NCBI RefSeq assembly: GCF_964355755.1
Contig: NC_092676.1
Location: 3,387,888-3,451,887, forward strand
Reading direction: 5' to 3'
Length of the DNA stretch: 64,000 nt
Source: Antedon mediterranea
Lineage: Eukaryota > Animalia > Echinodermata
Positions 331 through 40,882 of the stretch are shown in pieces. The position numbers and the translations under genes were made by a program. The notes beneath the pieces were generated by a model. The model made no database searches, was not told the DNA's origin, and saw only the letters and a list, made by a program, of their open reading frames with translations. The stretch's first letter is position 1; each line of letters begins with the position of its first letter.

Positions 331-703
331 AAATTAATATGACTGTGTAAAATCAGCAGACAATCAAAACGATAAAATGACTGAAACAGACAGTGAAAAT
401 GAGTATGATTATGTGGAAACATCAGGCATAGGCGTCAAAGAAGGCTCTGCAGAATACATTGAGGTTGTTGATGACACTGATGCTGATTCCATGATTGCAC
501 TACTAAAAACAGAAACTAGTAGGCCTACTGTGGCTGAGTACAATGATGCTTCAATACAACAAAACTATATTTCAATAAATATTAGAGAAAATGATAAAGA
601 GGCTGAGTTCGAAAACAGTAAATTACATCGTGTTAAAGGTATCTTCGACGTATACGAAAACGCATCTGTACGCACAAAACCACTGAAGTCTGCAAGGAAA
701 TAG
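331..703 (+). pseudogene. G0: remnant of a class-A cytoplasmic tail of the Ig receptor family
   Basis: ORF 377-703 (ETDSENEYDYVETSGIG...DVYENASVRTK) aligns to the C-termini of G2 and G9. No ectodomain or TM upstream; the upstream DNA resembles intergenic 32067-32470. Confidence 0.8.
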
Positions 704-1760: not shown

Positions 1761-4040
1761 ATGGCTCATCATCAACATTGTACATTGCTGATGGTTATAT
1801 TGTATACTATGTTTTACTGCTGCTGTGCACAAACCTATACTTTTACAAAACATCCACAATCGGTTCTCGTTAAGGCTGGTTTCCTGTCGACGTAAGAACA
1901 TCACTTTTGTTGCGACTACGTCGATATGTCGTAAGAAATGCGGATTTTACAGGAAACCGATTACGATCAAAAATTTATAAAATCGACGCAACGTAAGAAA
2001 AATGGTAACGACAAACGATTTTACAGGAAACCGATGACCTAACAATTGTTGCGTTACGACGTTTTCTTCCGATTTTACAGGAAACCGGGATTTTTTATCT
2101 TACGCTTGAATGAACGCCCTTGCGTCACGTTTCTTACGTCTCTTACGAAAGTTGACTTGAAGTCAACTTTCGCAAGAGACGTAAGCGCAATCGTAACAAG
2201 TAACCAATGAACGACAAGGGTTATGACGTAATGTGTATGTCCTTATAGTGAAATAAAGCCGGACAATAACATTTGTATGTATTTACTACTATAATTTTAG
2301 TCCACTTTACGATGTTGTACATACTTTACAAATGCACAGTAGTTTCAATATAGGCCTAATAATTTTCTAATCAGGGAGTTTACAACTCATATCAAAATAT
2401 AATACTCTTATTTATGGACGTGCAATAAACAATCAGCATCGGTAGAAACGTCGCGAAAATGAACATTTGCAACAAGATAAGATATAGAAAGCCCCTTTGT
2501 AAGCAATAATATATTATTATGTAACTTTAAAAAAAAATTGTTTGCTTGATTTTGTATAATTTATATTGTTTTGTTAAATTTATTCTCATGCTCGATTAGA
2601 TATGCTTATAGGCCCATAGGCCAATGCCTAGTCTAGGGCCTAGGTCTAATAATAATAATAGGAATCTCGAAATGATTTGCCTTTTTTTAATTTTGAAAAC
2701 TATTTAAGGCTAGGCCTAGAGGGCCAGGATAATTAATTCATATGTTGATTCATACAAATAATACATAGGCCTACTAGCCTAGGCTAGGGGCCTAGGCTAG
2801 TTTGATTGTTTGGTCAAATCAATTCCTATTAGTACAGTATTAATTAAGTATTTTACTAATACTAGGGCCTAGCCTATCTACTGAAAATAACATGTTGGTG
2901 TGCTGCACTGACACTGCTGCTGAGTAGCTACAGGTACAATAACAACATTCAACATTTCGCGCGAAAAATGATAAAACCCGCTCTAAAAAGAAACACCAAT
3001 CAGAGATGTTGTTTCAAATACGTCATAAATCCGACCGACGTAAGAAAAAAATTTCAACTTTCGTAACAACACTAAAATCGACGTAAGCATACGACGTGTG
3101 TTTCACAGCCAAAATTTCAACTTTCGGGAGCAGCATAACTACAGATGTTTCTCTGCGGCCCGACACGATCTTGACTAAGGTCAACGACGTCAATTTTTTC
3201 TCAACTTTCGTAAGAGACGTAAGAAACGTATGAAACGCAAGAATCGTTGCAAAATTCGACTTCTTACGTCGACAGGAAACCAGCCTTTAAGGAAGGACAA
3301 ACAGCAACGTTGTCGTGTGAATGGACAACAGCACCAACACATGACGTTTTCTGGTCTTTTTTTCGCTCGTGTTGGTACGCCTAAATTAATTGAAAGTTTA
3401 ACATTAAAATACAATGTAACAAGTAAAGCAACATCTTCAAATCTTTCCATTTTTAATGTTGATTCTGATGACGTAGGAAGCTTAAGATACAGATGTGATA
3501 TCTTGGATAGTGATTCATACAGTCTTTCTGAACTTGCTTCTGTAGTGCTAGCAGAAATAACGTGCAATCCAGAGAATGGCAATGGTGAGATAGGAACAAC
3601 GCTGACATGTTCTTATATTTTGTCTCATCCGTTAGATAATGTTGATTTATTATGGTACAGATATGGAAGTGTAATTGAATCACATCACAAACAAATGCAT
3701 GTTTTAGAATCAAGGGTTTTGACTGCCGAAGACGATGGAGCTGTATTTACTTGTAAAGCCACAATGGGATCTCAAGTGATAGGAACTTGTGAAACTACTC
3801 CGCTAATATTGAACATAGATGCAGAGATTGAACAATAACCACCAGGTCCACTTCAGGTTGGTGATAGCTTTAATCTCACGTGCTTTGGGAAAGGTAGTCC
3901 TGATCCTGGTAATTATATTTATGAATGGATATGGAACAACATTTCTGTAGATTCTTTGAAAAGTAATTGGCGATTTGCAATAAGCAATGTATTTACTGTG
4001 AAGAGTGTGACAACCAAAGACAATGGTGAAATAGTTACTC
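1761..4040 (+). pseudogene. G1: Ig receptor pseudogene interrupted by a DNA transposon
   Basis: ATG 1761 (MAHHQHCTLL...CCCAQTYTFTKHPQSVLV), interrupted at 1873-3286, resumes KEGQTATLSCEW. Frameshift in the T-run near 3357-3363, TAA at 3836-3838 in place of TCA, and truncated in domain 3 at about 4040 where it joins intergenic-type sequence. Confidence 0.9.
1873..3286. mobile_element. Non-autonomous PIF/Harbinger-like DNA transposon (~1.4 kb)
   Basis: 26-bp perfect TIR aggctggtttcctgtcgacgtaagaa / ttcttacgtcgacaggaaaccagcct. TTA duplicated at 1870-1872 and 3287-3289. Removing the element restores the frame VLVKEGQ. Internal near-palindrome at about 2133-2185. Confidence 0.85.
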
Positions 4041-4809
4041 CATCCATTGATGTTTATTTTATCACATTCAGTATCAGTAAAACAAGTTTCTCCACGCCCA
4101 AAAAAAAAAGGGGACGAAAACCAAAATATTATGACAGAATGGAAAGCTAGTAAAAAACGGTATAAAAAACATCTTAATTTAACCGTTAACACGACATTTG
4201 CTACAACAGGAAAGATAAAGTTATGTGGAGTGTTCTAACCAGTCATAGTTAGCATTTTCAACTTAAACTCTCACTGACCACGCCTCCTCTGGAGGAAAAA
4301 TGGCAATGTATTAGGAAAGTATTTTTAAAGTATTACATCATTAATGTTAAATATTCAGTGGTGCTATTTCCCGGTATTTTATTTCTGCAGTAATCAAGTG
4401 TATCACTAGTGCTGAAGTAGATCATTCCAACTTATATAACAACAAAATAAAGACACAAGTACCAACGTTTAATGTTTGACTACGAATACAGGATCTAACC
4501 GTATACGAAGTTATTTAATATTGGAAATAATGTTGGATTAAAGTGTTTATAAACTGAGTACCATTTGTATCATACGTGTGAACAGGCAAACATTATTTAA
4601 TGTCTAAAACATTATTACTGGTGTCTTAGAATCGTCGCAATAAGGAATATAATTTATAGGAATATTTGCGTAAATCTCAATTTTATAAGGAAGTTCCAAT
4701 ATTCGGACGTCAATCGAGGCGCCTGCGTAATACCCTACTATTCCTACTATAACAACGCATGGGAACATCAATCGAACATTATGTCTGATGATATCTAATA
4801 TTGACTACA

Positions 4810-6936
4810 ATGTTTAAAATGTATCATCAACATTGTACATTGCTGTTTTACAAGTGCTTGATTATATTGTATAGTGTATTTCACTGTTGTTGTGCACAAT
4901 CCTATAATTTTACAAAACAACCAAAATCTGTTCTTGTTGGACAAGGAAGGACAGCAACGTTATCGTGTGAATGGAAACCAGCATTGTATGGAAACTATGA
5001 ATTTGCATGGTCATTTTTCCCCGATCAAAGTAGTAAAAACAATCAACGAATTGGAGTTTCAACTTCCAAGTACAATTTAACAAATATAGCAACCTCTGCA
5101 TATCTTTCCATTTTTAATGTTGGTTACAACGATGTAGGGAACTACAGGTGTGATATCTCGGAAGATGGTGGTTTATACAGTCTTTCTGAACTTGCTTCTG
5201 TAGTGCTAGCAGAAATAGTGTGCGATCCAAAAAATGGTGAGATTGGAACAACGCTGACATGTTCTTTTTATTTTTCTTATTATTATTCACGTGATATTGA
5301 TTTACTATGGTATAAAAACAGGAAACAAATTACATCAAAAGTACAAACAAATTATGTTATAAAATCAAGACCTTTGACTGTCGAAGACGATGGAGCTGTA
5401 TTCACTTGTAAAGCCATAATTAGATCTCAACATCAAATGACAGGAACTTGTGAAACTACTCCGCTAGTATTGACTATAGATGCAGAGATTGAACAATCAC
5501 CGCCAGGTACACATCAGGTTGGAGATAGCTTTAACCTTACCTGCTCAGGGAAAGGTAATCCTGATTATTATAATTATGAATGGACGTGGAATGACAAACC
5601 GGTAAGATCGTGGGCAAATGAAAGACGATTTGCAATAGATAATGTGCTTACTGTGAAGAGTGTATCAAGCAGTTACAATGACAAAATAGTTACTTGTACT
5701 ATTAGTCGCAATGGTCGTAACAGTAGTATAGCAACCTATACAGTGAACGTTATAGAGGAAATGACTACACGTTTGCTATCGACATCTGGTACGCGTACGC
5801 GAAACTCAATTACGCGTCAACTATCAACTGACGTCCCTGATGATGAGTCCCCAACCGTAATGACTACACATTTACAGTCGACACTAGGTATACATACACA
5901 CAAGTCAATTACATACATACTATCAGAAACTAATATCCAGGATAATGATTCTACAATAATATTAATTGTCATCATTGGCGTAGTTGCGATATCTCTTGTG
6001 ATTTTGATAACAGCAATTGTAAATTACATTTTACATAAAAGGCGCAAGAAACAGGATGAGAAAAAAACAAAAGCTGAAAGTGTAACATTGAAAGAACCAA
6101 TGTATGGTAACACTGATCAAGAAATTATTAAAACGCGCGTAAATGGCCGTCTGCGCGAAACGTTGATAACAGATTTTGCTGTATATGAAGAACCTGCAAT
6201 GTCAGACACACATGGAAACTTGGATATTGTTTACGAAGCCCATGACGTGCCGCCACACGACCAATTAACAGAAAAAGATAAGTATGATTATGTTACATCA
6301 GAAGAAATGACAGTTGAAATAGAAAGCAAAAACGAGTATGACTATGCAGCAATAGCAGACACCCACAGTGCCGAGATGACAACTGAACGACACAACTATG
6401 ATTATGTGGTATCAGCAGACATCCACATCACAGAAAATGAATATGACGATGTAAAATCAGCAGACGATCAAAGTGATGAAACAGACAGTGAAAATGAATA
6501 CGAGTATGTGGAAACATCAGGAATAGGCGTTACAGAAAAAGAAGGCTCTGCAGAACACATTGAGGTTGTCGATTACAGCGCTGATGACGATCCCAGTAAA
6601 GATTCACTAAAAACAGAAAATACCAGGCCTACAGCTAGCGAGTACAATGATGCTTCAATGTCACACACTTATATTTCCATCAATGATAATGATAATGAAT
6701 CTGAGTACGAAAACAGAAAATTACATCGTCTTAAAGGTATCTCGACTTCTGACAACTCAAAGACCAAATCCGAAAGTGTTAAATTATTACAGAGATCAGG
6801 AAGAGGTGGAATAACCATTTTAGATAACCGCGAGGATGACGTCAGTAAGGTGAATGCGAGTACAGTTGAAGTAAACGACGTGTACGAAAATGCATCGGTA
6901 CGCACAAAAGCAGTGAAGTGTGCTAAGAAAAAATAG
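4810..6936 (+). CDS. G2: single-exon 3-Ig-domain type I membrane receptor, class-A acidic Tyr-rich tail
   Basis: First ATG 4810 in ORF 4801-6936. Signal peptide; Ig motifs TLSC..W..DVGNYRC, TLTC..WYK..DDGAVFTC, FNLTC..WTW..VTC; Thr-rich stalk; TM IILIVIIGVVAISLVILITAIV; tail with repeated YDYV/YEYV/YEN motifs. Confidence 0.9.
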   Translation: MFKMYHQHCTLLFYKCLIILYSVFHCCCAQSYNFTKQPKSVLVGQGRTATLSCEWKPALYGNYEFAWSFFPDQSSKNNQRIGVSTSKYNLTNIATSAYLSIFNVGYNDVGNYRCDISEDGGLYSLSELASVVLAEIVCDPKNGEIGTTLTCSFYFSYYYSRDIDLLWYKNRKQITSKVQTNYVIKSRPLTVEDDGAVFTCKAIIRSQHQMTGTCETTPLVLTIDAEIEQSPPGTHQVGDSFNLTCSGKGNPDYYNYEWTWNDKPVRSWANERRFAIDNVLTVKSVSSSYNDKIVTCTISRNGRNSSIATYTVNVIEEMTTRLLSTSGTRTRNSITRQLSTDVPDDESPTVMTTHLQSTLGIHTHKSITYILSETNIQDNDSTIILIVIIGVVAISLVILITAIVNYILHKRRKKQDEKKTKAESVTLKEPMYGNTDQEIIKTRVNGRLRETLITDFAVYEEPAMSDTHGNLDIVYEAHDVPPHDQLTEKDKYDYVTSEEMTVEIESKNEYDYAAIADTHSAEMTTERHNYDYVVSADIHITENEYDDVKSADDQSDETDSENEYEYVETSGIGVTEKEGSAEHIEVVDYSADDDPSKDSLKTENTRPTASEYNDASMSHTYISINDNDNESEYENRKLHRLKGISTSDNSKTKSESVKLLQRSGRGGITILDNREDDVSKVNASTVEVNDVYENASVRTKAVKCAKKK

Positions 6937-7289
6937 AAGCAAAACAGAACCAAACGTAGGCCTACAGACAAAACATTTAAAACTGCATCAATAAATTCAT
7001 AAGAGACATAGATAGATGCACTGTTTCCTATAAGAAGTTTAATCGATATTTTAGTATAGCATTTACTTTAAAAATGAGAGAGAAGTTTATTAAACGTTTT
7101 GATCTTTTATGGATCATAATACACATCGGAATTACAATAAGGAAATTAACTTAAAAAAGCAATGTTTGGAAGTCAGTCAAAGTGCACGAGTCAGTGTACT
7201 ACAGTATTCTATTAGGCATATAACAACGCGTGGGAACATCACAACATTATAATTGTTTATAATTAGCTACATTTAATGCAAAGCTTACA

Positions 7290-8952
7290 ATGTCTCATCA
7301 TCAATATTGTACATTGCTGTTTTACAAGTGCCTGATTATATTCTATAGTGTATTTCACTGTTGTTCTGCACAATACTATACTTTTACAGAACATCCACAA
7401 TCGGTTCTCGTTACAAAAGGACAAACAGAAACATTATCGTGACAGTCATGTCATTTTCTGGTCAGCATTTCATAGAAGAACGTATACAAGAATTGATAGT
7501 TCAACTTTGAAGTGCAATGTAACAACTAAAGCAAAATCGTCATATCTTTCCATTGTTAATGTTGATTATGATGACGTAGGAAGATACAGGTGTGATATCT
7601 GGAATGGTGGTGATTCATACAATCTTTCACGAGAGGCTTCAGTAGTGTTAGGAGAAATAACGTGCAATCCAGAGAATGACAATGGTGAGATTGGAACAAC
7701 GCTGACATGTTCTTATTTTACTTCTTATTATTCACGTGATATTGATTTACTATGGTATGAAAACAGGAAACAAATTACATGAAAAGTAAAAAAAAAACAA
7801 AGTTACAAAAACAGAAGCGTTGACTGTCGAAGACGATGGAGCTGTATTTACTTGTACAGCCACACTCGCATCTCAACATCAAGTGATAGGAACTTGTGAA
7901 ACTATTCCGCTAGTATTGACTATAGATGCAGAGATTGAACAATCACCACCAGGTCCACTTCAGGTAGGTGATATCTTTAATCTTACCTGCTCAGGGAAAG
8001 GTAATCCTGATTATTATGAATATGAATGGACGTGGAATAACATACCGATACAATCGTCGCCAAGTAAAAGTCGATTTGCAATTGGCAATGTGGTTGTTGT
8101 GAATTGCGTATTAAGCAGTGACAATGGCAAAATAGTTACTTGTACTATTAGTCGTAATGGTCGCAACAGCAGTACAGCGAGCTATACAATAAACGTCTTA
8201 GAGCATGTGTTGAGTAAACCTACATCTTTACAGTCGACATCAAGTACACGTACGTACAAACCCATTACACGTCAAATATCAACAGCAAATGTTCGATATG
8301 ACGTTTCAATGATAGCAGGTTTACACACAGCATCCTTTACTATCACGCAGCATTCCATTACAGACAAAAAGTCCCAAATAGGCCTACAAACGGTTGTCAT
8401 TTGCGTATTTGCAATTTTGCTCCTCGTTTCTATAATAACAATAAGCCTATGTGTGTATTTGCAAAAAACAAAAAAGAAAAACACAATTCCTTCAGATCGA
8501 ATCTCCAATAATCGACAGTCAAATAATTTTGGATTATACGATACGATTATATTACATCATCTGGCATACACGTGACCACGACAGCCAGTGACGAAGTTCA
8601 GTATGATTATGCTATTTACACGGGCACACAAATCACCGAGGGGGTGAATAGCACGGAATACGAATACGAGGTTGGTGTATTATCTTCACGTACTGATAGT
8701 TTCAGAAAAGTCTGCACAAGTGATAAAGAGGTTGAGTACGAACATGATGACACAATAGGCCTAGGCCTACATCTCAAAGATATGACAGGCACTAACACTT
8801 CTGAAAATACATTAGATATTAGGAACAAAAGAATTAAACTATGTAAGCGCCTGAATGCAGCTGGTGGCACTGATGTAAACGTGTACGAAAATAAATCTGT
8901 ATGTACAAAAGCATTGACGTCAGCTACGACATCTTTTATACAAAAGAGATAA
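7290..8952 (+). pseudogene. G3: frameshifted Ig receptor pseudogene
   Basis: ATG 7290. Deletion and stop near 7440, TGA at 7780-7782, frameshifts near 7790-7820 and 8550-8575. Pieces 7348-7782, 7820-8575 and 8572-8952 cover D1-D3, TM and a tail ending VYENKSV. Confidence 0.85.
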
Positions 8953-9452
8953 AAACACAGTAATTGCATCAACTGAACACCTATACTCGAACGTTATATG
9001 TAGCAGTAATAGCAAATATACCGTATTTAATCGCAATATTATCGAAAAAAATAATTCTAGGCCTATATTATAAAAAATCTTGGCATTGAGCGAAATAGAA
9101 ATAAGAAATAAATAATAATAAAAGAGAAATATATCCAGTTGATAATATTGATAATTATATTTTCATTGTTTCACTATAGCCCGTATTGGGCCCGTATTAG
9201 CCTAAATGTTTCTGACACTCATGCAAGTATTTGCATTTTTTTGTAGTGCTTGAAACAACAGTTAACGACAATTATTATCGTCTTATGATTATTATAAATG
9301 TAGTGGTAGTATTTGGTGTACAACAATTAATTCAAAATTACGTTTATTATGATTAGAAAAAATAACAAGAATGTGGATTGTATGAGATTTATGAAATATC
9401 ATTGTGTTTGTTGTTCAAGGAAGTAAATTAAAATGATTTTATAAAGAAAACG

Positions 9453-9764
9453 TTTGGGATGAAAATGAAGACAGGATTTTACAAACGATTAAGAAGAATT
9501 TGAGACTTCTTGAAAGAAGGAAAATAATGTAAAAGATTTAAAGATTTATTGTCCCCCAAAAACATGAAAAATGAAGATTAATTCAATCACACTTTGAATA
9601 GGTTATTTTGGGATGAAAATGAAGACAGGATTTTACAAACGATTAAGAAGAATTTGAGACTTCTTGAAAGAAGGAAAATAATGTAAAAGATTTAAAGATT
9701 TATTGTCCCCCAAAAACATGAAAAATGAAGATTAATTCAATCACACTTTGAATAGGTTATTTTG
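9453..9764. repeat. 154-bp tandem duplication that includes the left end of a MITE
   Basis: tttgggatgaaaatgaagacagg... starts at 9453 and again at 9607; the copies look essentially identical. Confidence 0.85.
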
Positions 9765-13111: not shown

Positions 13112-14323
13112 ATGTTTATAATGGCTCATCATGAACATTGTACATTGCTGTTTTACAAGTGCTTGATTTTATTGTATAGTATATTTTACTGTTGTTGTGC
13201 ACAATCCTATACTTTTACAAAACAACCAAAATCTGTTCTTGTTGGACATGGAAACACAGCAACGTTATCGTGTGAATGGAGACCAGCATTGAATGAAAAC
13301 CATGTCGTTTTCTGGTCAGCATACCCTCATGTTGGTGGGTCGCATGCAATTGAAAGGTCAATTTTAAATTACAATTTAACAAATATAGCAACATCTGCAT
13401 ATCTTTCCATTTTTAATGTTGGTTACAATGATGTAGGAAGATACAGGTGTGATATCTGGAATGGTGGTGATTCATACAATCTTTCACGAGAGGCTTCAGT
13501 AGTGTTAGGAGAAATAACGTGCAATCCAGAGAATGACAATGGTGAGATTGGAACAACGCTGACATGTTCTTATTTTACTTCTTATTATTCACGTAATATT
13601 GATTTACTATGGTATAAAAACAGGAAACAAATTACATGAAAAGTATCACAAAGCAATGCTATAAAATCAAGAGCTTTGACTGTTGAAGACGATGTAGCTG
13701 TATTTACTTGTAAAGCCAGAATTAGATCTCAAAATCAAGTGATAGGAACTTGTGAAACTACTCCTATTATATTAAGTATAGATGCAGAGATTGTACAATC
13801 ACCACCAGGTACACTTCAGGTTGGAGATAGCTTCAACCTTACCTGCTTAGGGAAAGGTAATCCTGATTATTATAATTATGAATGGACGTGGAATGGCGAA
13901 CCAGTAGGATCGTCACCAAATGGAAAGCGATTTGCAATTGGCAATGTGGTTACTGCGACGAGTGTATCAATCAATGCTAATGGCAAAATAATTACTTGTA
14001 CCATTAGTCGTGATGGTCGTAATAGCAGTACAGCGAATTATACAATAAACGTTCTAGAGAACATTTCGAGTAGTCCTACAACTACACGATTGCAAACAAC
14101 ACCAACGCAACAAGTCGTTACAGACAAACTACTACCAACTACACGCTTACACACTACACGTTTGCAGTCGACACGTGCGCAACGACTCATTACAAATCCA
14201 GAAAGTACTAGCGCGGCTGAGTACGATAACGTTGCATTGCAACCAACAGATATTTGCAGCGAAGAGCCAAAGTACGAAAATAATAAACTACGTGTTAAAC
14301 GCTACAAGCATGACAACGTCTGA
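13112..14323 (+). pseudogene. G4: Ig receptor copy with an in-frame TGA (13637-13639) and deleted TM; could encode a secreted D1 product
   Basis: ORFs 13103-13639 and 13676-14323 are in the same frame. The stalk is joined directly to the late class-C tail (RLIT|NPES), so there is no TM. Confidence 0.8.
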
Positions 14324-15984: not shown

Positions 15985-16161
15985 AAAAATGACAATGTAT
16001 TAGGAAAGTATTTTTAAAGTATTACATCATTAATGTTGAATATTCAGTGGCGCTATTTCCTGATATTTTATTTCTGCAGTAATCAAGTTTATCACTGGTG
16101 CTGAAGTAGATCATTCCAACTTATATAAAGACAAAATAAAGACACAAGTGCCAACGTTTAA

Positions 16162-17029: not shown

Positions 17030-19036
17030 ATGTTTATAAAGACTTACCATCAACTTTGTACATTGCTGTTGTACAAGTGCCTGGTTATATTGTATGGTAT
17101 ACTTCACTGTTGTTGTGCACAATCCTATACTTTTACAAAACAACCAAAATCTGTTCTTGTTGGACAAAGAAACACAGCAATGTTGTCGTGTGAGTGGAAA
17201 CCAGCATTGAACGAAAACCATGTCGTTTACTGGTCAGCATACCCTCATGTTGGTGGGACGCAAGCAATCGATAGGTCAACTTTAAAGTACAATTTAACAA
17301 ATATAGCAACATCTGCATATCTTTCCATTTTTAATGTTGGTTACAACGATGTAGGAAGATACAGGTGTGATATCTCGGAAGGTGGTGGTTTATTCAGTCT
17401 TTCTGAACGTGCTTCTGTAGTTCTAGGAGAAATATTGTGCGATCCAAAAAATAGCAATGGTGAGATTGGAACAACGCTGACATGTTCCTATTTTACTTCT
17501 TATTATTCACGTGATATTGATTTACTATGGTATAAAAACAGGAAACAAATTACATCAAAAGTAAAACAAAACAATGCTATAAAATCAAGAGCTTTGACTG
17601 TTGAAGACGATGGAGCTGTATTTACTTGTAAAGCCAGAATTAGATCTCAAAATCAAGTGATAGGAACTTGTGAAACTACTCCTATTATATTAAGTATAGA
17701 TGCAGAGATTGTACAATCACCGCCAGGTCCACTTCAGTTTGGAGATAGCTTTAACCTTACCTGCTTAGGGAAAGGAAATCCTGATTATTATAATTATGAA
17801 TGGACGTGGAATGGCGAACCAGGAGGATCGTCACCAAATGGAAAGCGATTTGCAATTGGCAATGTGGTTACTGTGACGAGTGTATCAAGCAGATACAATG
17901 GCAAAACAGTTACCTGTACTATTAGTCGTAGTGGGCGTAACACAAGTACAGCAACATATACAGTAAACGTTATAGAACAAATGACTACACGTTTGCAGTC
18001 GACATCTGGTACGCGTACGCGCAACTCAATTACGGTCAGACTATCAGAAACTAATGTCGCGCATGACGTTTCACCAGTAATGACTAAAAGTTTACAGTCG
18101 ACACTAGGTACACGTACGTACAAGTCAATTACAGAAACTAATATCCAGGATAATGATTCTACAATAGTAATCATTGTCATCATTGGCGTAGTTGCGATAG
18201 CTCTTGTGAGTTTGATAACAGCGTTTATAATTTACGTTTTAAAGAAAAGGCACAAGACAAAACCCGAAAATGTACCATTGGAAAAACCAGTGTACGGTAA
18301 CACTGAACAAAACATTAACAGTTCTGAAATAGATAATTACCTTTGTGAAAATGTGGAGACAATATACGCAGAACCTGACCTGTCAGAAAATGGTTGCCAT
18401 GTTAAATATGACACGCCACAGAATGCATTAAATATTGATAAAACTGATGATTCTTTAGGTAAGCCAATGAAACCTAATGAAGCAAGTGATGCTAAGCCGG
18501 GAAAAATGACAAGTGCCGAAAGTACAGATGCAATACAAGTAAAACCGATCAAGGCCCGCAGTAAAGAAATTATTGAAGATCTGTATTCTAAGCCTAACAA
18601 ACGGAATGCGAAAACGCCGATCGAGGCCCAAAGCAAAGAGAATCTTGAAGATCTGTATACTAGGCCTAATAAACCGACTGCAAGCAGACCAATCAAGGCC
18701 CACAATGTTAAAGAAAGTCTTGAAGATCTGTATTCTAAGCCTAACAAACGGAATGCGAAAACGCCGATCGAGGCCCAAAGCAAAGAGAATCTTGAAAATC
18801 TGTATACTAGGCCTAATAAACCGACTGCAAGCAGACCAATCAAGGCCCACAATGTTAAAGAAAGTCTTGAAGATCTGTATTCTAAGCCTAACAAACCAAC
18901 GACAAGAACGCCAGAAATTACGCACGAAAATTCTACTAAAAAAAACGTAGAAGGCTTAACGTACGCAGAAATAGAGTTTACCCCTGAACCACAGGACTAC
19001 GGGCTTGATTACGCAACTGTACAGATTAAAAAGTAA
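17030..19036 (+). CDS. G5: 3-Ig receptor, class-B tail with five LY(S/T)(K/R)PNK repeats and paired ITIM-like motifs
   Basis: 668-aa ORF with SP, 3 Ig domains and TM IVIIVIIGVVAIALVSLITAFIIYVL; tail ends EGLTYAEI...GLDYATVQIKK. Confidence 0.9.
   Translation: MFIKTYHQLCTLLLYKCLVILYGILHCCCAQSYTFTKQPKSVLVGQRNTAMLSCEWKPALNENHVVYWSAYPHVGGTQAIDRSTLKYNLTNIATSAYLSIFNVGYNDVGRYRCDISEGGGLFSLSERASVVLGEILCDPKNSNGEIGTTLTCSYFTSYYSRDIDLLWYKNRKQITSKVKQNNAIKSRALTVEDDGAVFTCKARIRSQNQVIGTCETTPIILSIDAEIVQSPPGPLQFGDSFNLTCLGKGNPDYYNYEWTWNGEPGGSSPNGKRFAIGNVVTVTSVSSRYNGKTVTCTISRSGRNTSTATYTVNVIEQMTTRLQSTSGTRTRNSITVRLSETNVAHDVSPVMTKSLQSTLGTRTYKSITETNIQDNDSTIVIIVIIGVVAIALVSLITAFIIYVLKKRHKTKPENVPLEKPVYGNTEQNINSSEIDNYLCENVETIYAEPDLSENGCHVKYDTPQNALNIDKTDDSLGKPMKPNEASDAKPGKMTSAESTDAIQVKPIKARSKEIIEDLYSKPNKRNAKTPIEAQSKENLEDLYTRPNKPTASRPIKAHNVKESLEDLYSKPNKRNAKTPIEAQSKENLENLYTRPNKPTASRPIKAHNVKESLEDLYSKPNKPTTRTPEITHENSTKKNVEGLTYAEIEFTPEPQDYGLDYATVQIKK
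18575..18897 (+). repeat. Coding tandem repeat, 147-bp (49-aa, 24+25) dimeric unit in the G5 tail
   Basis: gaagatctgtattctaagcctaacaa at 18575, 18722 and about 18869. Confidence 0.9.
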
Positions 19037-22804: not shown

Positions 22805-24520
22805 ATGGCTCATTCTCAATATTGGACATTGCTGTTCTTCAAGTTTCTGATTATATTTCATATATCTCACTGTTGTCATGCGCAGTACTACAATTTTACA
22901 GAACATCCACAATCGGTTCTCGTTGCAGACGGACAAACTACAACGCTATCGTGTGAATGGACACCAGCATTGAATAACAACCATCTCGTAACATGGAAAT
23001 ACGATCGTGTTAATAGTCCTAAACGAATTGAAATTTCAGATACAAAATACGCATTAATGAACGAAGCAACATCTTCAAGTCTTTCCATTTCTAATGTTGG
23101 CTCTGGTGACGTAGGCAACTACATTTGTGAGATCTTCGAATGTGATTCATACAACAGTGTCTCATCTTCTACATTTGCTTCTCTAGTATTAGGAGAATTG
23201 ATATGTAATCCGGAGAATATTGTTGATATAGGAACAACGCTGATATGCTCCTTCACCTCTTCTGATAATTCATATATTATTAATTTACTATGGTATAACA
23301 ACGGAAAAAAAATAACTTCGGGACAACAACAAAACAATGATTTAGAATCAACGGCTCTGACTGCCGAAGACGAAGGAGGTGTATTTACTTGTAAAACCAC
23401 TATCGGATTTCAAAGTCAAGCGACAGGAACTTGTGAAACTACTCCACTAGTATTTCCAATAGATGCAGAGATTCAACAATCACCACCAGGTCCACTTCAG
23501 GTTGGTGATAGCTTTAATCTTACCTGCGTAGGGAAAGGTAATCCTGAAAATTATAATTACGAATGGACGTGGAATAACAACCCAGTAGAATCTATGACAG
23601 ATAGTCGATTTGCAATTGGCAATATGGTTATTGTGAATACTGTATCAGGCAGTGACAATGGCAAAATGGTTTCTTGTACTATTAGTAGTGGTGGTTACAG
23701 AAGTATAGCGAGCTATACAATAAACATTTTGGATCAGACGTCGAGTACAACTACAAGTATGTCGACACCAGATAGGCCTACACGTACGCAAAAACCAATT
23801 ACGGCGGTCAGACTCACAATACCTGATGACCCGGATGACATTTCAACAACAGTAATGACTACACGTTTAAAGTCGACACTAGATACACGTACGCAAAAAC
23901 CAATTACGGTCAGACTCACAACACATAATGTTCCGGATGACATTTCAACAACAGCAATGACTACACCAGGTACACGTTTGCAAAAACCAATTACACATCA
24001 ACTCACAACACATAAAGTCTCGGAAGACGTTTCCGCAACAGTAGACCTAATGAATACACGTTTAAACACAACACCTGTTACTGTAACGCGTTCTATTACA
24101 GAAATCCTAACGGTTGTAATTATCGTAGTTGCAATTTTACTCGTCGTTTCTTTGATAATAATAATAAGCCTATGTGTTTATTTGCAAAAAAGAAAAAAGA
24201 AAAACACAACTCCTTCAAATCGACTGTCAAATAATCTTGAGCACGTTTACTATTCCATTACGTCATCTAGCGCACACGTGACCTCGACAGCCAGTAACAC
24301 TAAGTATGATTATGTCATACACCCGTTCACACGCAATACGGAAGAATCCACTCCTGAGTACCTTGAATTGGACGATGGTTTCCAAGATGGCGCACCAAAA
24401 TCAGCAAGTAATACAGCCGCTGATTACGATGATGTTGCATCGGAACAAACAGATACTAATAACAAAGAGTACAAATACGAAAATGGTATGCTGCGGGATA
24501 AAGGTATCAGAGAGACATAA
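22805..24520 (+). CDS. G6: divergent 3-Ig receptor with a long repeated mucin-like stalk and class-C-related tail
   Basis: ATG 22805 in ORF 22790-24520. Three TR(T/L)QKPIT stalk units; TM ILTVVIIVVAILLVVSLIIIISLCVYL; tail YDYV, EYLEL, DYDDV, KYEN. Confidence 0.88.
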   Translation: MAHSQYWTLLFFKFLIIFHISHCCHAQYYNFTEHPQSVLVADGQTTTLSCEWTPALNNNHLVTWKYDRVNSPKRIEISDTKYALMNEATSSSLSISNVGSGDVGNYICEIFECDSYNSVSSSTFASLVLGELICNPENIVDIGTTLICSFTSSDNSYIINLLWYNNGKKITSGQQQNNDLESTALTAEDEGGVFTCKTTIGFQSQATGTCETTPLVFPIDAEIQQSPPGPLQVGDSFNLTCVGKGNPENYNYEWTWNNNPVESMTDSRFAIGNMVIVNTVSGSDNGKMVSCTISSGGYRSIASYTINILDQTSSTTTSMSTPDRPTRTQKPITAVRLTIPDDPDDISTTVMTTRLKSTLDTRTQKPITVRLTTHNVPDDISTTAMTTPGTRLQKPITHQLTTHKVSEDVSATVDLMNTRLNTTPVTVTRSITEILTVVIIVVAILLVVSLIIIISLCVYLQKRKKKNTTPSNRLSNNLEHVYYSITSSSAHVTSTASNTKYDYVIHPFTRNTEESTPEYLELDDGFQDGAPKSASNTAADYDDVASEQTDTNNKEYKYENGMLRDKGIRET

Positions 24521-26644: not shown

Positions 26645-28306
26645 ATGGCTCATCATCAATGTTGTACATTGCTGTTGTACAAGTGCCTGATTACATTGTA
26701 TAGTGTATTTCACTGCTGTTGTGCACAATCCTATACATTTACAAACGGTCCAGAATCGGTTCTCGTTGCTGAAGGACAAACAGTAACGTTATCTTGGGCA
26801 TGGACACCTGAATTGAATGAAAACCATTTTTTTAAATGGGTATACTATCCTGTTGGTAGAGCGGGTCAAGTAATTGAAAGTTCAACGTCAAAATACACTT
26901 TCACAAAAGGTACAACATTTTCAAATCTTTCCATTTTGAATGTTGGTCCTAATGATGTAGGAACATACTTGTGCCGTATCTCCGAAGGTGATCGTCTATA
27001 CAGTTACAGTGAAACTACTTATGTAGTGCTAGGAGTGTTAACGTGCAGTCCAGAATATGATAATGGTGACAAAGGAACAACGATGACATGTTCTTATGCT
27101 TCATCTTATCCTGCATATGCTATTGATTTACTATGGTATAAAAACGGGAATAAAATTACTTTAGCAGCACAACTACAAAATGGTATCAAAGAATCAAGAG
27201 CTTTGACTGCTGAAGACGATGGAGCTGTATTTACTTGTAAAGCCACAATTTATTCTGAAAAGATAGGAAGTTGTGAGACTACTCCGCTAATATTGAATAT
27301 AGATGCGGAGATTGAACAATCTCCGCCAGGTACACTTCAGGTTGGTGATAGCTTTACCCTTACCTGCTCAGGGAAAGGTAATCCTGAGTATTATAATTAT
27401 ACATGGACGTGGAGTGGCAAACCTGTAGGATCGTCATCAAATGAAAGGCCATTTGTAATAGGTAATTTGCTTATTGTGACGTGTGTATCAAGCAGTGACA
27501 ATGGCAAAATAGTTACTTGTACCATTAGTCGTGATGGCCGTAACAGCAGTACAGCGAGGTATACAAAACACGTCTTAGAGAATACGCCTACTGTTACAGA
27601 CTTACTATCAGCAAACAATGTCACAGACAACGAGCCTCAAACATTGATTATTGTCATTGGCGTAGTTGCAACAGTTATTGTGATTTTGATAACAGCAATT
27701 GTAATTTTCATTTTACATAAGAGGCGCAAGAAACAGGATGACAAAAAGACAAAACCTGAAAATGTACCATTGAAAGAACCAATGTATAGTAACACTGATA
27801 AAAATATTAACAGTTCTGAAAAATCACGCATACAAAATGGCCCTCGAAGTGAAAAGTTGAGAACAGATTTTACAGTATATGATGAGCCTACGATTTCAAG
27901 TTCAAATACTCAGTTGGAGACTATGTACGCCGAACCTGACAGGTTAGTAACTGGTCACGATGAAAGGTATGACACGCCACGGAACGCTATAAGTCTTGAT
28001 AATATCGATTCAGTGAGTACTGATCAAGCGAGTAACGCTAAGCCAAGAAAAACAAAAAGCAGAGAAAGTATTGATGCAATGTACGCGAAACCGAACAAGT
28101 CTCGCAGTAAAGAAAGTATTGATGATCTGTACGCTACGCCTAACAAACCGACTGCAAGAACGCCAGAGATTACCTGCGAAGATCCTACTAAGAAAAACGT
28201 AGAAGGCCTAACATACGCAGATATAGAGTTTAAAGGTGGTACGTCTCCAAACCCTGAACCACAGGACTACGGACTTGATTACGCAACTGTACAGATTATG
28301 AAGTAA
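26645..28306 (+). CDS. G7: 3-Ig receptor, short stalk, class-B ITIM-like tail; D1 lacks the first (B-strand) Cys
   Basis: ATG 26645. TLSWAW instead of TLSCEW; tail MYAKP, LYATP, LTYADI, LDYATV. Confidence 0.88.
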   Translation: MAHHQCCTLLLYKCLITLYSVFHCCCAQSYTFTNGPESVLVAEGQTVTLSWAWTPELNENHFFKWVYYPVGRAGQVIESSTSKYTFTKGTTFSNLSILNVGPNDVGTYLCRISEGDRLYSYSETTYVVLGVLTCSPEYDNGDKGTTMTCSYASSYPAYAIDLLWYKNGNKITLAAQLQNGIKESRALTAEDDGAVFTCKATIYSEKIGSCETTPLILNIDAEIEQSPPGTLQVGDSFTLTCSGKGNPEYYNYTWTWSGKPVGSSSNERPFVIGNLLIVTCVSSSDNGKIVTCTISRDGRNSSTARYTKHVLENTPTVTDLLSANNVTDNEPQTLIIVIGVVATVIVILITAIVIFILHKRRKKQDDKKTKPENVPLKEPMYSNTDKNINSSEKSRIQNGPRSEKLRTDFTVYDEPTISSSNTQLETMYAEPDRLVTGHDERYDTPRNAISLDNIDSVSTDQASNAKPRKTKSRESIDAMYAKPNKSRSKESIDDLYATPNKPTARTPEITCEDPTKKNVEGLTYADIEFKGGTSPNPEPQDYGLDYATVQIMK

Positions 28307-29331
28307 ATTTTTTTACGCAACATTTACCAGTACGTTTATTGTTACATTTATCATTAGGAATTAACCTTTGACATGTGACGTAACCGCATCGTTCAATATT
28401 GCTTGTACTGTATATACAAAGCTATTTTAATGCAATGTGTATTATTATAGGCCTAACAAGTAACAGTAAAACGAATTTCTATCGTAATGTTATACGTCAT
28501 ACGCATCTCAACAACGATCATGAAGGAATTTGTTGAAATTACTGGGATGCTAAAATTTTATTTTATTAGAAACAGTATAATTCTAAAGATTTTCTGAAAT
28601 ATCAGATTTTAGCCACATGGCAAGTGAAGCGTTTTGACAAATCATGGACACGTGTCCCACAAAAAAAAAATACAACTAATATTGGAAAACTTTCTCCATA
28701 ATTTCAAGTTTAACTTTATCTACGGAGGCCTAGCTCAACACGGATGTTCTTTGCTGCAGCCGTGCTATAGAAAGGACAGCAGTTGTGTACAAAGTAGCAG
28801 TAAAATAATCTTATAATGATAAAAAACAGGAAAGTCCCAAAGTTTAAATACAAGTTACACTCTAGGGGGCAGTATATCCTGCTACCGGTTTTACCTGACA
28901 TTCGATAATCTGTGACAATAACTTGAAACCGGATATCCAGTTATATAGCATATAACGAGCCTAACGTTCAAATACAGTGATTTGATACAGTACACAGGAA
29001 TCAGATCGAGTGAGTGTTTAAACTAGAAAAGCTGGCTCTTTCTGTATATATCGTAGCATTTTACAATACACAGTGATTAGAAACAGAATCATAATCGAAA
29101 AGGTGCTTAAACTGGACACAATTTCTATCATAACAAACGCGTGGCAACATCAACTAACAATATAATGTATACAGTTTTACATCGTATTAAGTATCTTTAA
29201 ATCATTGAAATCTAGTACTTCTCAACGTTTTTGTTCCGTACCAACAATCTCTATTTTGATAAGGAAATAATTTACACCAATCTATAGCAATATTTGGAAC
29301 TCAATCATCTGAAGAAAATACACAGTTCGTA

Positions 29332-31349
29332 ATGGCTCGTCAGCAATTGTACATTGCTAATTATATTGTATAGTATATTTCACTGCTGTTTTGGAAAAAC
29401 ATATTTGTTCACAGAAGATCCACAATCGGTTCTCGTTGCAGAAGGACAAACAGCAACGCTATCGTGTGTTTGGAAACCAGAATTGTTCGAACAGCATAAC
29501 TTTGAATGGGTATTATTCCCTCAGGATTACGGTGAATCTCAATCAATTAAAATGTCAAATTCAAAATACAATTTAATAAATAACGCAACATCTTCATATC
29601 TTTCCATTTCCAATGTTGATTCTGATGACGCGGGAAACTACAGGTGTGATATCATCGGAATGAATGAATTCAGTTATTCTGATCAGGCTGCCGTAGTGAT
29701 AGGAGAAATAATGTGCAATCCAGAATATGATAAAGGTGAGATAGGAACAAAGCTGAAATGTTCTTATACTTCTTCTTATCCTTTAAATGATATTTATTTA
29801 CGATGGTATAAAGACGGAAATATAGTAATATCAGACACAAAAGACAAACACGTTTTAGAATCAAGAGCTTTGACTGCTGAAGACGATGGAGCTGTATTTA
29901 CTTGTAAAGCCACAGTTGGATCTCAAGTGATAGGAACTTGTGAAACTACTCCTCTAGTATTGACTATAGATGCAGAGATTGAACAATCACCACCAGGTCT
30001 ACTTCAGGTTGGAGATAGCTTTAATCTTACCTGCTCAGGGAAAGGTAACCCCGATTATTATGAATATGAATGGACGTGGAATGGCAACCCCGTACGATCG
30101 TCACCAAATGAAAGTCGATTTTCAATAGAGAGTGTAGTTACTGTGAAGGATGTATCAAGCAGTGCTAATGGCAAAATAGTTACTTGTACTATCTGTCATA
30201 GTGGTCGTGACACCAGTGTAGCGAATCATACAATCAATATTTCAGAGAATATGCAAAGTACAACTGCACGTTCACACACAACACAAGTTACGCCTACTGT
30301 TACAGACCTACTATTACCAACCATTTTATCTGAAACCAAACTATCAACAAACAATGTCGCAGACAACGACCCCCAAATATTGATTATTGTCATTGGCGTA
30401 ATTGCAGCCGTTATTGTGATTTTGATAACAGCAATTGTAATTTTAATTTACATTTTACATAAAAGGCGCAAAAAACAGGATGGCAACAAGACAAAACCTG
30501 ACAATGTACCATTGAAAGAACCAATATACAACTCTGATCAAGAAAGTATTATTGAAACGCGCGTAGATGGCTCTCTGCGCGAAACGCTGATAACAGATTT
30601 GGCTGTATATGATGAACCTGCAATGTCAGACACACATGGAAACTTGCAGATTGTTTACGAAGACCCTGACGTGCCGCCACACGGCCAATTAACAGAAAAA
30701 GACAAGTATGATTATGTTACATCAGAAGAAATGACAGTTGAAAGAGAAAGCAAAAACGAGTATGACTATGCGGCAATAACAGACACTCACAGTGCCGAGA
30801 TGACAGATGAATCAGACATTAAAAATAACTATGATTATGTGGTATCAGTAGACACCCACAGCACAGAAAATGAATATGACGATGTAACATCAGCAGACGA
30901 TCAAAACGATGAAACAGAAAATGAGTATGATTATGTGGAAACATCAGGCATAGGCGCCACAGAAAAAGAAGGCTCTGCAGAATACATTGAACTTGTTGAT
31001 GACAACGCCGATGTCGCCTGTCACCAGAGGAAGCCACTAACAACTAATATCTAATATGCCTGCTGCATCCAAGTACAATGTTGCTTCAATGTCACAAACT
31101 TATAGAGCAAATGATAATGAGGCTGAGTACGAAAACAGTAAATTACATCGTCCCAAAGGTATCTCGACTTCTGACAACTCAAACACACAGTTATCACAGA
31201 GATCAAGAAGAGATGGAATAACCATTTCAGATAATCGCGAAGATGACGTCACCAAGGTGCATACGAGTACAGTTGAAGTACCTGATACAAACGACGTGTA
31301 CGAAAATGCATAGGTACGAACAAAAGCAGCGAAGGGTTCTAAGAAATAG
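29332..31349 (+). pseudogene. G8: probable pseudogene, class-A tail
   Basis: ATG 29332 is out of frame with ORF 29354-31054 (small deletion in the signal peptide). The tail is disrupted near 31010-31056 and has TAG at 31311-31313 in place of TCG. Confidence 0.75.
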
Positions 31350-37430: not shown

Positions 37431-39332
37431 ATGTTTATAATGACTCATCATCATTGCTTGCTGTGCCTGATTGTGTTGTATAGTATATTTCACTGCTGTT
37501 TTGGACAAACCTATTTGTTCACAGAAGATCCACAACCGGTTCTCGTTGCAGAAGGACAAACAGCAACGCTATCATGTGTTTGGAAACCAGAATTGTTCGA
37601 ACAGCATAACTTTGAATGGGTATTTTTCCCTCAGGATGGTGGTCAGGCTCAATCAATTCGAATGTCAAATTCAAAACACAATTTAATAAATAACGCAACA
37701 TCTTCGAATCTTTCAATTTTTAATGTTGATTCTGAAGACGCGGGAGACTACAGGTGTGATATCATAGGAAATAATGAATACAGTTATTCTAATCAGGCTG
37801 CCGTAGTGATAGGAGAAATAAGATGCAATCCAGAATATGATACTGGTGAAATAGGAACAACGCTGACATGTTCTTATACTTCTTCTTATCCTTTAAATGA
37901 TATTGATTTACGATGGTATAAAGACGGAAATAGAGTAATATCAGACACACAAGACAAACACGTTTTAGAATCAAGAGCTTTGACTGCTGAAGACGATGGA
38001 GCTGTATTTACTTGTAAAGCTTTTATCGGACATCAAGTGATAGGAACTTGTGAAACTACTCCGCTAGTACTGACTATAGATGCAGAGATTGAACAATCAC
38101 CGCCAGGTACACTTCAGGTTGGTGATAGCTTTAATCTTACATGCACAGCAGGGAAAGGTAATCCTGAATATTATGAATATGAATGGATGTGGACTGACAA
38201 ACCAGTAGGATCGTCAACATGTAAAAATAAATTTGCAATAGGCCATGTCCTTACGGTTTTGGGTGCATCAATTAATACGAATGGCACAAACGCTACTTGT
38301 ATTATTAGTCGTGATGGTCGAAACATCAGTACAACGACCTATACAATAAATACAGTTTTCATAAGTTTGACCTCAACAACGACACATTCACACACGACAC
38401 CAGGTACGCATACACACAAGTCAAGTATATATAAACTATCAGAAACTACTAGACTAAAGATTGTCATTGGAGCCGTTTCAGTAGCGCTTGTGATGTCGAC
38501 GACAGGAAATATAATTTACTTGTTAAGAAAAAGGCGCAAAAAGATTAAACGAATAAGCCTGCAATTAAAATCAATGAATGACATTGAACAAAAGACTACA
38601 GATTCTGACGTTCATGGAAATTTGGTGACAGTTTTGACTGTTGATAAGCCTGGGATTTCAAAAGAGTCAAACGCAGAAGACAATTTAACCACTATGTCAT
38701 GTGATAAACGTACACTGGCAGCACGTGACCAATTACAAGACAACGTTGATTATGATTTTGTTGCATCAGCAGACAATCAAAGCACTGACAATACAGTAAA
38801 CAGCAACAATGAATGCCATGATTCGGCATTAGTAGACATTCACAACGACGAAATGACATCTGAAACAGGCAGTGAATATGAGTATGATTATGTGGAGACA
38901 TCAGGTATAGGGGCCACAGAAAATATCGGCTCTGCAGAATACATTGAGGTTGTCGAGGACAGCGCTAATGACGATTCCAGTAAAGATTCACTAAAAACAG
39001 AAAATACTAGGCCTACAGCTGGCGAGTACAATGATGCTTCAATGTCACAAACTTATATTTCCATAAATACTAGAACAAATGATAAAGAAGCTGAGTACGA
39101 AAACAGTAAATTACATCGTCTCAAAGGTATCTCGACTTCTGACAACTCAAAGACCAAGTCCGAAAGTGTTAAATTATCATCGAGATTAAGAAGAGATGGA
39201 ATAACCATTTCAGATAATCGCGAGGATGACGTCACCCTGGTGTATGCGAGTACAGTTGAAGTACCTGATAGAAACGACGTGTACGAAAATGCATCGGTAC
39301 GCACAAAAGCAGTGAAGTGTGCTAAGAAATAG
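37431..39332 (+). CDS. G9: 3-Ig receptor with atypical polar TM and class-A tail
   Basis: 633-aa ORF; D1 close to G8 and G11; TM IVIGAVSVALVMSTTGNIIYLL; tail ends DVYENASVRTKAVKCAKK. Confidence 0.9.
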   Translation: MFIMTHHHCLLCLIVLYSIFHCCFGQTYLFTEDPQPVLVAEGQTATLSCVWKPELFEQHNFEWVFFPQDGGQAQSIRMSNSKHNLINNATSSNLSIFNVDSEDAGDYRCDIIGNNEYSYSNQAAVVIGEIRCNPEYDTGEIGTTLTCSYTSSYPLNDIDLRWYKDGNRVISDTQDKHVLESRALTAEDDGAVFTCKAFIGHQVIGTCETTPLVLTIDAEIEQSPPGTLQVGDSFNLTCTAGKGNPEYYEYEWMWTDKPVGSSTCKNKFAIGHVLTVLGASINTNGTNATCIISRDGRNISTTTYTINTVFISLTSTTTHSHTTPGTHTHKSSIYKLSETTRLKIVIGAVSVALVMSTTGNIIYLLRKRRKKIKRISLQLKSMNDIEQKTTDSDVHGNLVTVLTVDKPGISKESNAEDNLTTMSCDKRTLAARDQLQDNVDYDFVASADNQSTDNTVNSNNECHDSALVDIHNDEMTSETGSEYEYDYVETSGIGATENIGSAEYIEVVEDSANDDSSKDSLKTENTRPTAGEYNDASMSQTYISINTRTNDKEAEYENSKLHRLKGISTSDNSKTKSESVKLSSRLRRDGITISDNREDDVTLVYASTVEVPDRNDVYENASVRTKAVKCAKK

Positions 39333-39847
39333 AAGAAGAATAACATAATCAACCGTACAGAATATTCATGCAAAAACAAACAATGAAAGAAACTTGTTTA
39401 TGAATGCTTAATCCCTAAATTAGAGGTTTATGGCAGGTATGATATCTTTAGTATTAAGGTTTTTATTAGTGAAATTGTTAACTTTCAACATTTGCAAACT
39501 AGTGTCCTTACGTACAGGGATGTGACTTAAAAGTATTGTAAGACTAGTATGGGCCATGGTACTTTCATGGTAAGAGAAATAGAAAAGTAGGCTAAATATA
39601 TAAGTTAATGTCTTGAATTATTATAGCATTAGTTAAAAAAGTATTGTAATTTTGTTTAAGGAAGTAAATAAAAATATTATATTAGAAATAATCAACTCTG
39701 AAATGAACATTAACCAGAAAAGGGAAGGAAGGAAGTATTAACAGATGATTAGCAAGAATTAAAACTGTACAGAAAAGAGAAAAGAAAAACAGAATAAAAT
39801 TCATCGATAAAATATCCTAATTTGGCATGAAATAAGCAACAATACTA

Positions 39848-40882
39848 ATGCTGACTATAGATGCAGAGATTGAACAGTCACCACCAGGTCCACTTCAGGC
39901 TGGGGATAGGTTTACCCTTACCTGTTCAGGGAAAGGTAATCTTGATTATTATGAATGGACGTGGAATGGCAAACCTAGGATAGGATCGTCGACAGATAAA
40001 AGTCGATTTGCAATAGATAATGTGCTTACTGCGACGAGAGTATCAATCAATGCTAATGGCAGAATAGTTACTTGTACTATTAGTCGTAGTGGTCGTAACA
40101 GCAGTACAGCGAGTTTTACAATAAATGTTCTACAGAACAATTCGAGTAGGCCTACTACTACACATTTGCAAACAACACCAACACAACAAGTCGTTACAGA
40201 CAAACTACTACCAACTACACGATTACACACTACACGTTTACATTCGACACGTACGCAACAAGTCTTTACAGACAAACAACTACCAACTACACGCTTACAC
40301 ACTACACGTTTACACACTACATGTTTGTCGACACGTACGCAACGATTCACTAAAGACCTAAAACTATCAGAAACTAATATATCGGCTGACAAGCCCCCAA
40401 CACTAATGGTTGTAATTAGTGTACTTGCAATTTTACTCGTAGTTTCTTTAATATTAATAATATACATGTATTTACAAAAAAGAAACGTATCTAGAGACAA
40501 CATAATTCCTTTAAATCGACCACCGAAAAATATTGGACACATTTACGATTATATTGTGTCTTCAGACACACAGATCAACACGAAAGGCCATGACACAAAC
40601 ACGTATGATTATGCCATATATCCGTGTACTCGCATCGCAGAGAACACAAGTGCTGAATACATTGAAGTAGAAGACAGTTTCCATGAGGGCCCACAAAAAC
40701 CAGAACAAAATATGACCGCAGTCGAGAACGATGATGTGTCCTTACAACCAACGGATATTTGCAGCAAAGAGGCCACGTACGAAAATGGTGAATTGCGTAT
40801 CAAAGGCATAGCAACTTCTGACAATATAACAACAATTAAGTACGAAAATACTAAATCATCTACGCATCTACAGGAAATATAA
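39848..40882 (+). pseudogene. G10: 5'-truncated copy (D3, stalk, TM, class-C tail only)
   Basis: The ORF begins at the D2/D3 boundary (LTIDAEIEQSPPG), fused to class-A 3'-flank sequence. No signal peptide, D1 or D2. Confidence 0.75.

Follow-up and report, generated by a model that had tools for sequence, protein, structure and literature searches.

A tandem array of candidate three-Ig membrane receptors, each in one open coding frame, with relatives in echinoderms and hemichordates

In cnidarians and tunicates, allorecognition is run by clustered Ig receptors whose tails carry tyrosine motifs, and in the accounts of these systems diversity leans on exons and splicing (bioRxiv 10.1101/2022.03.04.482883; PMC12582321). 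The Alr genes of Hydractinia are described there as having an exon of their own for each Ig domain, for the spacer and for the membrane helix "without exception", together with alternative splicing and ITAMs (bioRxiv 10.1101/2022.03.04.482883), and the FcoR receptors of Botryllus are reported to have ITIM and hemITAM swapped by alternative splicing of many exons (PMC12582321). Intronless tandem immune genes as such are already known, which limits the surprise of finding another such set, and one review lists an intronless invertebrate IgSF gene, Aplysia AcFREP1, beside a four-exon paralogue (PMC11999971). In the literature searched, which comprised main texts mostly from outside the subscription journals, no description of an intronless Ig receptor array or of the present family was found; the same literature yielded no Ig receptor clusters of this type in the echinoderm/hemichordate lineage.

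The locus described here lies in a window of 64 kb, by which we mean the whole stretch of DNA analysed. A reading made earlier from the sequence alone (the sequence-only reading) had set its frames against Ig receptor genes with one domain per exon, and that contrast holds for Hydractinia Alr as described (bioRxiv 10.1101/2022.03.04.482883). Our main reading, with a probability of roughly 0.68, is that the window carries a tandem array of three-Ig membrane receptors, one frame each, every copy being a patchwork of parts shared with others; the receptors would belong to an old family of echinoderms and hemichordates and signal through tail tyrosines in immune or self/non-self recognition. The array would thereby offer a comparable mix-and-match without introns or splicing, and its relatives span echinoderms and hemichordates.

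Receptor units and their coding frames

Mapping with tblastn placed 16 whole or partial units in the 64-kb window, all on the + strand: eight complete copies, six broken or partial copies, one tail-only fragment and one copy cut at the window end (Table 1). The complete frames, named here by their first positions (4810, 17030, 22805, 26645, 37431, 43439, 46447 and 53541), encode 493-708 aa. Ig Pfam matches above cut-off (Ig_3/Ig_2/I-set) are present in all eight, as is one 21-residue hydrophobic segment per copy, with a hydropathy of 3.0-3.65 in seven copies and 1.87 in 37431; signal peptides were judged by eye from the sequence and the structure model. Frames, Pfam and hydropathy thus agree with the sequence-only reading that signal peptide, three Ig domains, stalk, transmembrane segment and tail run unbroken in every complete copy (8/8). 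By their Ig folds, leader and single membrane helix, the complete copies are predicted to be type I membrane receptors of the IgSF. One cysteine of the canonical pair in domain 1 is lost despite intact frames in two copies, the first cysteine in 26645 and the second in 43439.

Table 1. Features of the receptor array, with the parts of the first complete frame (positions of the window)
Feature	Position	Strand	Details
Tail-only fragment, type B	332..703	+	
Ectodomain fragment, broken	3230..4048	+	
Promoter-like stretch	4682..4752	+	shared motif T-K-R-TAAG-K-AA with GGAAGTTCC; TATAA 62 nt before ATG
Receptor gene with tail type B	4810..6936	+	708 aa, single frame, acidic tail, 17 tyrosines, 0 strict ITIM, 0 ITAM
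Signal peptide, predicted	4810..4896	+	hydrophobic N-terminus; helix 2-26 in first structure model (pLDDT 58.7)
Ig domain 1, V/I type	4897..5205	+	highest variability of the domains, mainly in C, C-C' and F-G segments
Ig domain 2	5206..5478	+	four cysteines (138, 151, 200, 214), the family signature
Recombination switch zone in other copies	near end of Ig domain 2 (5206..5478 in 4810)		
Ig domain 3	5479..5754	+	strongest conservation among domains, dN/dS 0.60
Ser/Thr-rich stalk	5755..5955	+	36% S+T
Transmembrane helix	5956..6018	+	uncharged; switch point of 4810 at codons 396-398 (before, 17030-like; after, 29345-like)
Cytoplasmic tail of 4810	6019..6936	+	D/E at most 3 residues before 14/17 tyrosines
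AATAAA, candidate polyadenylation signal	6990..6995	+	
Broken copy	7289..8952	+	several frame changes
Broken copy	13112..14323	+	stop in domain 2; without stalk and membrane segment
Complete copy, tail type A	17030..19036	+	668 aa; seven YxxP motifs, two C-terminal ITIMs
Complete copy, tail type C	22805..24520	+	571 aa; most divergent ectodomain
Complete copy, tail type A	26645..28306	+	553 aa; two ITIMs; first cysteine of domain 1 replaced
Broken copy	29325..31330	+	start out of frame; 573-codon open frame; late frame change in type B tail
Complete copy, tail type B	37431..39332	+	633 aa; one ITIM match; weaker membrane segment
Partial copy	39839..40882	+	only domain 3, stalk, membrane segment and type C tail
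Complete mosaic copy	43439..44920	+	493 aa; domains 1-2 37431-like; domain 3 and type C tail 53541-like
Complete copy, tail type C	46447..48003	+	518 aa
Broken copy	49415..50979	+	frame change where domain 3 starts
Complete mosaic copy	53541..55091	+	516 aa; domain 1 17030/62885-like; domain 3 and type C tail 43439-like
Copy open up to window end	62885..64000	+	372 codons

At the DNA level, there is one open coding frame per copy. The 4810 frame runs on the + strand from the ATG at 4810 to the TAG at 6936 without an internal stop, and an AlphaFold model of its ectodomain, which supersedes the earlier structure model, consists of three beta-sandwiches with a mean pLDDT of 82.8. Under random substitution this frame survived in 14/2000 trials at 5% change, in 0/2000 at 10% and in 0/2000 at 15%; the copies differ by 1-34% per domain, and the result at 10% indicates that frames of such divergence have been kept open by selection. 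Nucleotide alignment of nine ectodomains with 4810 revealed net indels that did not exceed 15 nt and were almost always multiples of 3, and no intron-sized inserts between aligned copies. Pooled dN/dS was 0.76 in the leader, 0.78 in domain 1, 0.82 in domain 2 and 0.60 in domain 3. Stalk length, by way of internal repeats, ranges from 22 to 124 aa across copies.

The claim that the array spread by tandem duplication is upheld, together with a birth and death of copies, and this spread likely took place at the DNA level, since the units have flanks in common. The accompanying claim of compact units of about 3-6 kb stands for 7 of the 14 gaps, which lie inside that range, but the real spacing is wider, at 1.6-9.3 kb with a median of ~3.7 kb. 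Short pieces of leader from this gene family also stand by themselves at 1767-1892 and 25647-25789.

Upstream of the frames, 9 of 13 starts are preceded at 41-150 nt by a shared motif, and 8 of 13 have a TATAA at 53-71 nt from the ATG. The TAAG motif gave 10 matches against 1.1 expected, a difference whose significance is overstated because the pattern was drawn from the aligned units, which are themselves duplicates. The motif and TATAA together favour a promoter near the start, and the elements within the promoter-like stretch may be of the GATA, Ets and NF-kB kinds. The TAAG motif was also considered as the splice acceptor of a 5' UTR intron, which seems less likely than a promoter element given its AAG end and its variable distance from the ATG (41-150 nt).

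The DNA between the units holds transposons and repeats. An insertion at 55328-60922, within a 40-bp repeat behind copy 53541, has 17-bp terminal inverted repeats and a TAA duplication, and we take it to be PIF/Harbinger-like. Nested in it is a 5'-truncated LINE of L1/Tx1 type (55490-60302) with a 16-bp target-site duplication, a poly(A) end and an open frame of 1116 codons that contains RVT_1 and zf-RVT; its full-length relatives are ~1255 aa long and up to ~40% identical over their full length, and its insertion is likely recent. Interspersed repeats of very high depth in 4/4 runs lie at ~9340-10670, 16010-17340 (bins) and 19340-20000, a 154-bp tandem pair lies at 9453-9764, and CpG depletion is absent over positions 1-64000 (observed/expected 0.99).

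Tail types and recombination inside the frame

The copies carry tails of type A, which have YxxP repeats and a terminal pair of ITIMs (17030, 26645), of type B, which are long, acidic and multi-tyrosine (4810, 37431 and the broken 29325), or of type C, which are short and multi-tyrosine (22805, 43439, 46447, 53541). With the strict definition [ILVS]xYxx[ILV] given in the Alr paper (bioRxiv 10.1101/2022.03.04.482883), ITIMs are present in 3/8 copies, two each in 17030 and 26645 and one in 37431. Neither an ITAM nor a charged membrane residue was found in any of the eight complete copies of the 64-kb window, so the classic activating partner is missing from the window. Of the traits that mark a paired ITIM/ITAM cluster, the array thus displays a tandem cluster with pseudogenes and recombination as well as predicted inhibitory members with ITIMs, and within the window it lacks activating members. 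In the tail of 17030, a 72/147-nt repeat at 18544-18897 multiplies the Y-x-x-P motif. Past the type C stop (55092-55230; also behind 14323, 48003 and 50979), another frame continues with more tyrosine motifs, which suggests a longer ancestral tail that was shortened through a shared frame change.

Related ectodomains are joined to different tails, as in 4810 (B), 17030 (A) and 53541 (C), and relationships differ from domain to domain within one copy. In domains 1-2, copy 43439 has 83-91% identity with 37431 and 29345, but its domain 3 matches that of 53541 at 93%; domain 1 of 53541 is 92-94% identical to 17030 and 62885. An incompatibility test in our own implementation gave p=0.001 on 227 informative sites and the same on 80 third-position sites, and each domain rejected the trees of the other two in AU tests, which favour a domain's own tree. 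Triplet scans revealed switches in site support from 102/129 to 31/252, from 111/132 to 13/74 and from 178/236 to 10/83. The switches lie inside domain 2 in 43439 (codons 193-200) and 53541 (codons 195-211), and inside the membrane helix in 4810 (codons 396-398). Four of five triplets were at the permutation floor of p=0.002 and one was at p=0.01, for triplets picked after the identity tables had been viewed. Within-exon shuffling, as the sequence-only reading had proposed, is therefore backed by the conflicting domain trees and by switch points inside domain 2 and the membrane helix, and the comparisons support the view that the copies are mosaics of one another, recombined within the coding frame.

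Unequal crossover and gene conversion are the likely means by which the copies multiply and exchange parts. Since there are no introns, new pairings of ectodomain and tail would come about by crossover in conserved coding patches, namely the end of domain 2 and the membrane helix, and not by splicing. A 40-bp tandem repeat of 3-18 copies follows type C tails at 14438-14723, 48118-48856, 51094-51373, 55206-55328 and 60923-61129, and could possibly aid unequal crossover.

Relatives and origin of the intronless state

Word-indexed homologue searches with the ectodomain returned no relative among 4759 candidates or among 7986 longer candidates, and scans of metagenome contigs returned none either. 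A full HMMER profile scan of 1.84 billion proteins gave mostly long multi-Ig proteins among the matches listed. The six best single-stretch matches of the 150 listed scored 57-73 bits, with the next at 48 and the other 144 at or below 48, and all six are uncharacterised echinoderm or hemichordate proteins, from a starfish, a crinoid and three acorn worm genera: XP_022110264 (Acanthaster), XP_033121820 (Anneissia), XP_077864653 and XP_077865053 (Saccoglossus), XP_070550306 (Ptychodera) and XP_078001388 (Glandiceps). They are colinear with the array over three Ig domains at 18-24% identity, with stalk and membrane helix present. A four-cysteine domain 2 is found in 8/8 copies, 5/6 relatives and 6/150 listed matches, by a pattern that was written after the alignment had been seen. 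Two of the six relatives, the Acanthaster protein and one from Saccoglossus, end in a twin ITIM, and the tail of that Saccoglossus protein reads much like a type A tail. Tail types B and C, by contrast, were seen in the array and in none of the six relatives. Relative to these six, the window copies form one clade with support of 100 in a tree of ambulacrarian sequences only. In the Anneissia model XP_033121820, two complete receptors follow each other head to tail, so that the model probably represents two tandem genes merged by annotation.

The shared layout, four-cysteine domain 2 and twin ITIM of these relatives indicate that the family they would form with the array is likely old, and from the twin ITIM at the end of the Acanthaster protein and of one Saccoglossus relative we infer that type A is the ancestral tail. 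The relatives also point to an ambulacrarian as the probable source of the window. Atlas gave one Echinodermata cluster at 0.92, as a lead only. Sequence and fold searches of the PDB gave generic Ig matches; among the top ones, vertebrate SIRP, CD22 and nectin-like ectodomains share the three-Ig fold, generically and at 12-19% identity, and no orthology is claimed. The SIRP, CD22 and nectin-like genes are multi-exon, with a similar ITIM logic.

How the frames came to be without introns can be read in more than one way. The single-exon state may be older than the echinoderm-hemichordate split, with the array as a local expansion; we regard this as quite possible, if short of even odds. Layout, four-cysteine domain 2 and twin ITIM occur in both phyla (compared as proteins), the double receptor in the Anneissia model hints at a compact tandem there, and sea urchin TLRs are described as mostly single-exon and in tandem arrays (PMC3367398), but the acorn-worm proteins have four Ig domains, with an extra N-terminal one, where the array has three.

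The sequence-only reading had instead made the founder a retrocopy: a spliced parent of the same genome would have been reverse-transcribed and its lineage-specific copy would have seeded the array. This proposal remains tentative. It would remove all coding introns at once, and the L1/Tx1-type element in the window, with its target-site duplication, poly(A) end and long frame, indicates that the machinery likely exists. The L1/Tx1 clade copies cellular mRNAs. Other invertebrate Ig receptor families are described as multi-exon (bioRxiv 10.1101/2022.03.04.482883; PMC12582321), and intronless mollusc IAPs have been interpreted as retrocopies (PMC8917759). However, the claim went without the poly(A) scar that would mark such an origin, as there is no A-run of at least 8 within 300 nt after the polyadenylation signal in any complete copy, an absence that weighs little since scars would decay at such divergence; moreover, no closer spliced-type parent stands among the 150 listed matches, in which the nearest relatives are 18-24% identical. 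Stepwise intron loss takes the share left beside the retrocopy and the ancestrally intronless family. The simplest guess would be that the introns were lost by an RNA-mediated event, possibly very early.

A bolder form of the argument, which we consider doubtful, is that the array represents an undescribed, ancestrally single-exon, ITIM-bearing Ig family of echinoderms and hemichordates that re-pairs ligand domains with tails by in-exon crossover and is a candidate for self/non-self recognition. If true, it would constitute a splicing-free route to paired-receptor diversity.

Proposed role and comparison with known systems

Variation in domain 1 is concentrated, with identities of 0.35-0.44 in the C, C-C' and F-G segments against ~0.70 in A, B, E and F. 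The face formed by C, C-C' and F-G is used for ligands by many Ig receptors. pN clearly exceeds pS only in short segments (0.41 vs 0.24 in F-G), and a dN/dS near 0.8 is equally compatible with relaxed selection and with mixed purifying and positive selection. By the proposed mechanism, the variable face of domain 1 would bind a ligand and a kinase would then phosphorylate the tail tyrosines; type A tails, with their twin ITIM, would recruit SH2 phosphatases and lead to inhibition, and those of types B and C would serve as docking sites for other SH2 adaptors. By analogy with Alr and FcoR, a part in immunity or in telling self from non-self is predicted. If the role is immune, the array puts forward definite candidate receptors for the sister group of chordates; with one frame per gene the repertoire would be readable straight from genomes, as with sea urchin TLRs.

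The array could instead serve as an adhesion or cell-identity code, comparable to clustered protocadherins or nectin-like molecules, which we consider unlikely. The top fold matches include the ectodomains of nectin-like 4, NCAM and DIP, all of them generic (TM-score 0.3-0.4), and single large exons, a trait of protocadherins, count in favour of such a code. Every unit, however, has a tyrosine-rich tail and stop of its own, the window showed no constant exon common to the units, and broken or partial internal copies make up 6 of the 16 units, the kind of turnover that is typical for immune families.

A more basic objection to an immune receptor array of single frames is that the frames are not truly single-exon, either because short in-frame introns lie in stalk or tail or because the assembly absorbed cDNA-like sequence. 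The wide length variation of stalk and tail speaks for such introns, as does a donor-like GGTGAGA at codon ~143 in 6/10 copies, but the length changes trace to internal repeats, and the tails keep their tyrosines and behave as coding sequence, since their pN/pS (0.34-0.80) is below 1 in 9/9 pairs. GTAAG is scarcer in the frames (0.18 per kb) than on the antisense strand (1.19 per kb), and GT..AG ends were found at 0 of the 15 listed joints (of 37). Contigs from public runs span 6/6 domain junctions, and 4/6 in a second organism, among 32 listed of 1665 pieces; these bridging contigs, of unrecorded run type, are read as DNA because the same runs or samples also cover intergenic DNA (X5, and runs sharing samples with X2 and X7). 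Run X5 was considered as RNA and rejected as such; with 30/30 bins covered, including repeats and intergenic DNA, it was treated as DNA-like. Transposons and pseudogenes interleaved with the copies also speak against this objection. Altogether, hidden introns within the frames are unlikely, and the objection as a whole is very improbable; minor splicing from the donor-like site at codon ~143 and a 5' UTR intron are possible. Capture from a DNA virus, or carriage by one, would account for the missing introns, and a viral "CD2 homolog" cluster (Atlas score 0.88) is a lead only. This viral origin is scarcely credible, because the viral contig scan found no relative, viral fold matches are generic (10-17% identity), the best sequence relatives are animal and viral genes are absent from the frames of the window.

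As an array of receptors in single frames, the locus can be placed among the described systems as far as their accounts go. Sea urchin TLRs, from what is likely a related lineage, resemble the array in gene architecture, being mostly single-exon receptors in large tandem arrays with many pseudogenes (PMC3367398), but they are LRR-TIR proteins, whereas the array encodes Ig domains with tyrosine tails. AcFREP1 combines Ig with a fibrinogen lectin in a single gene and is not a membrane-receptor array. FcoR shares with the array its Ig receptors, variable clusters and interchangeable tyrosine-motif tails (PMC12582321); in the array, unlike FcoR, tails would be exchanged by recombination inside one frame. 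Like the array, Alr has its Ig receptors in clusters, with spacer, membrane helix and tyrosine motifs, with pseudogenes and with shuffling at the level of domains, whereas the array has one frame per gene, no ITAM and no domain-per-exon structure. The array is not a member of the Alr or FcoR families, but it would work in the manner of Alr, FcoR and the paired-receptor clusters of vertebrates.
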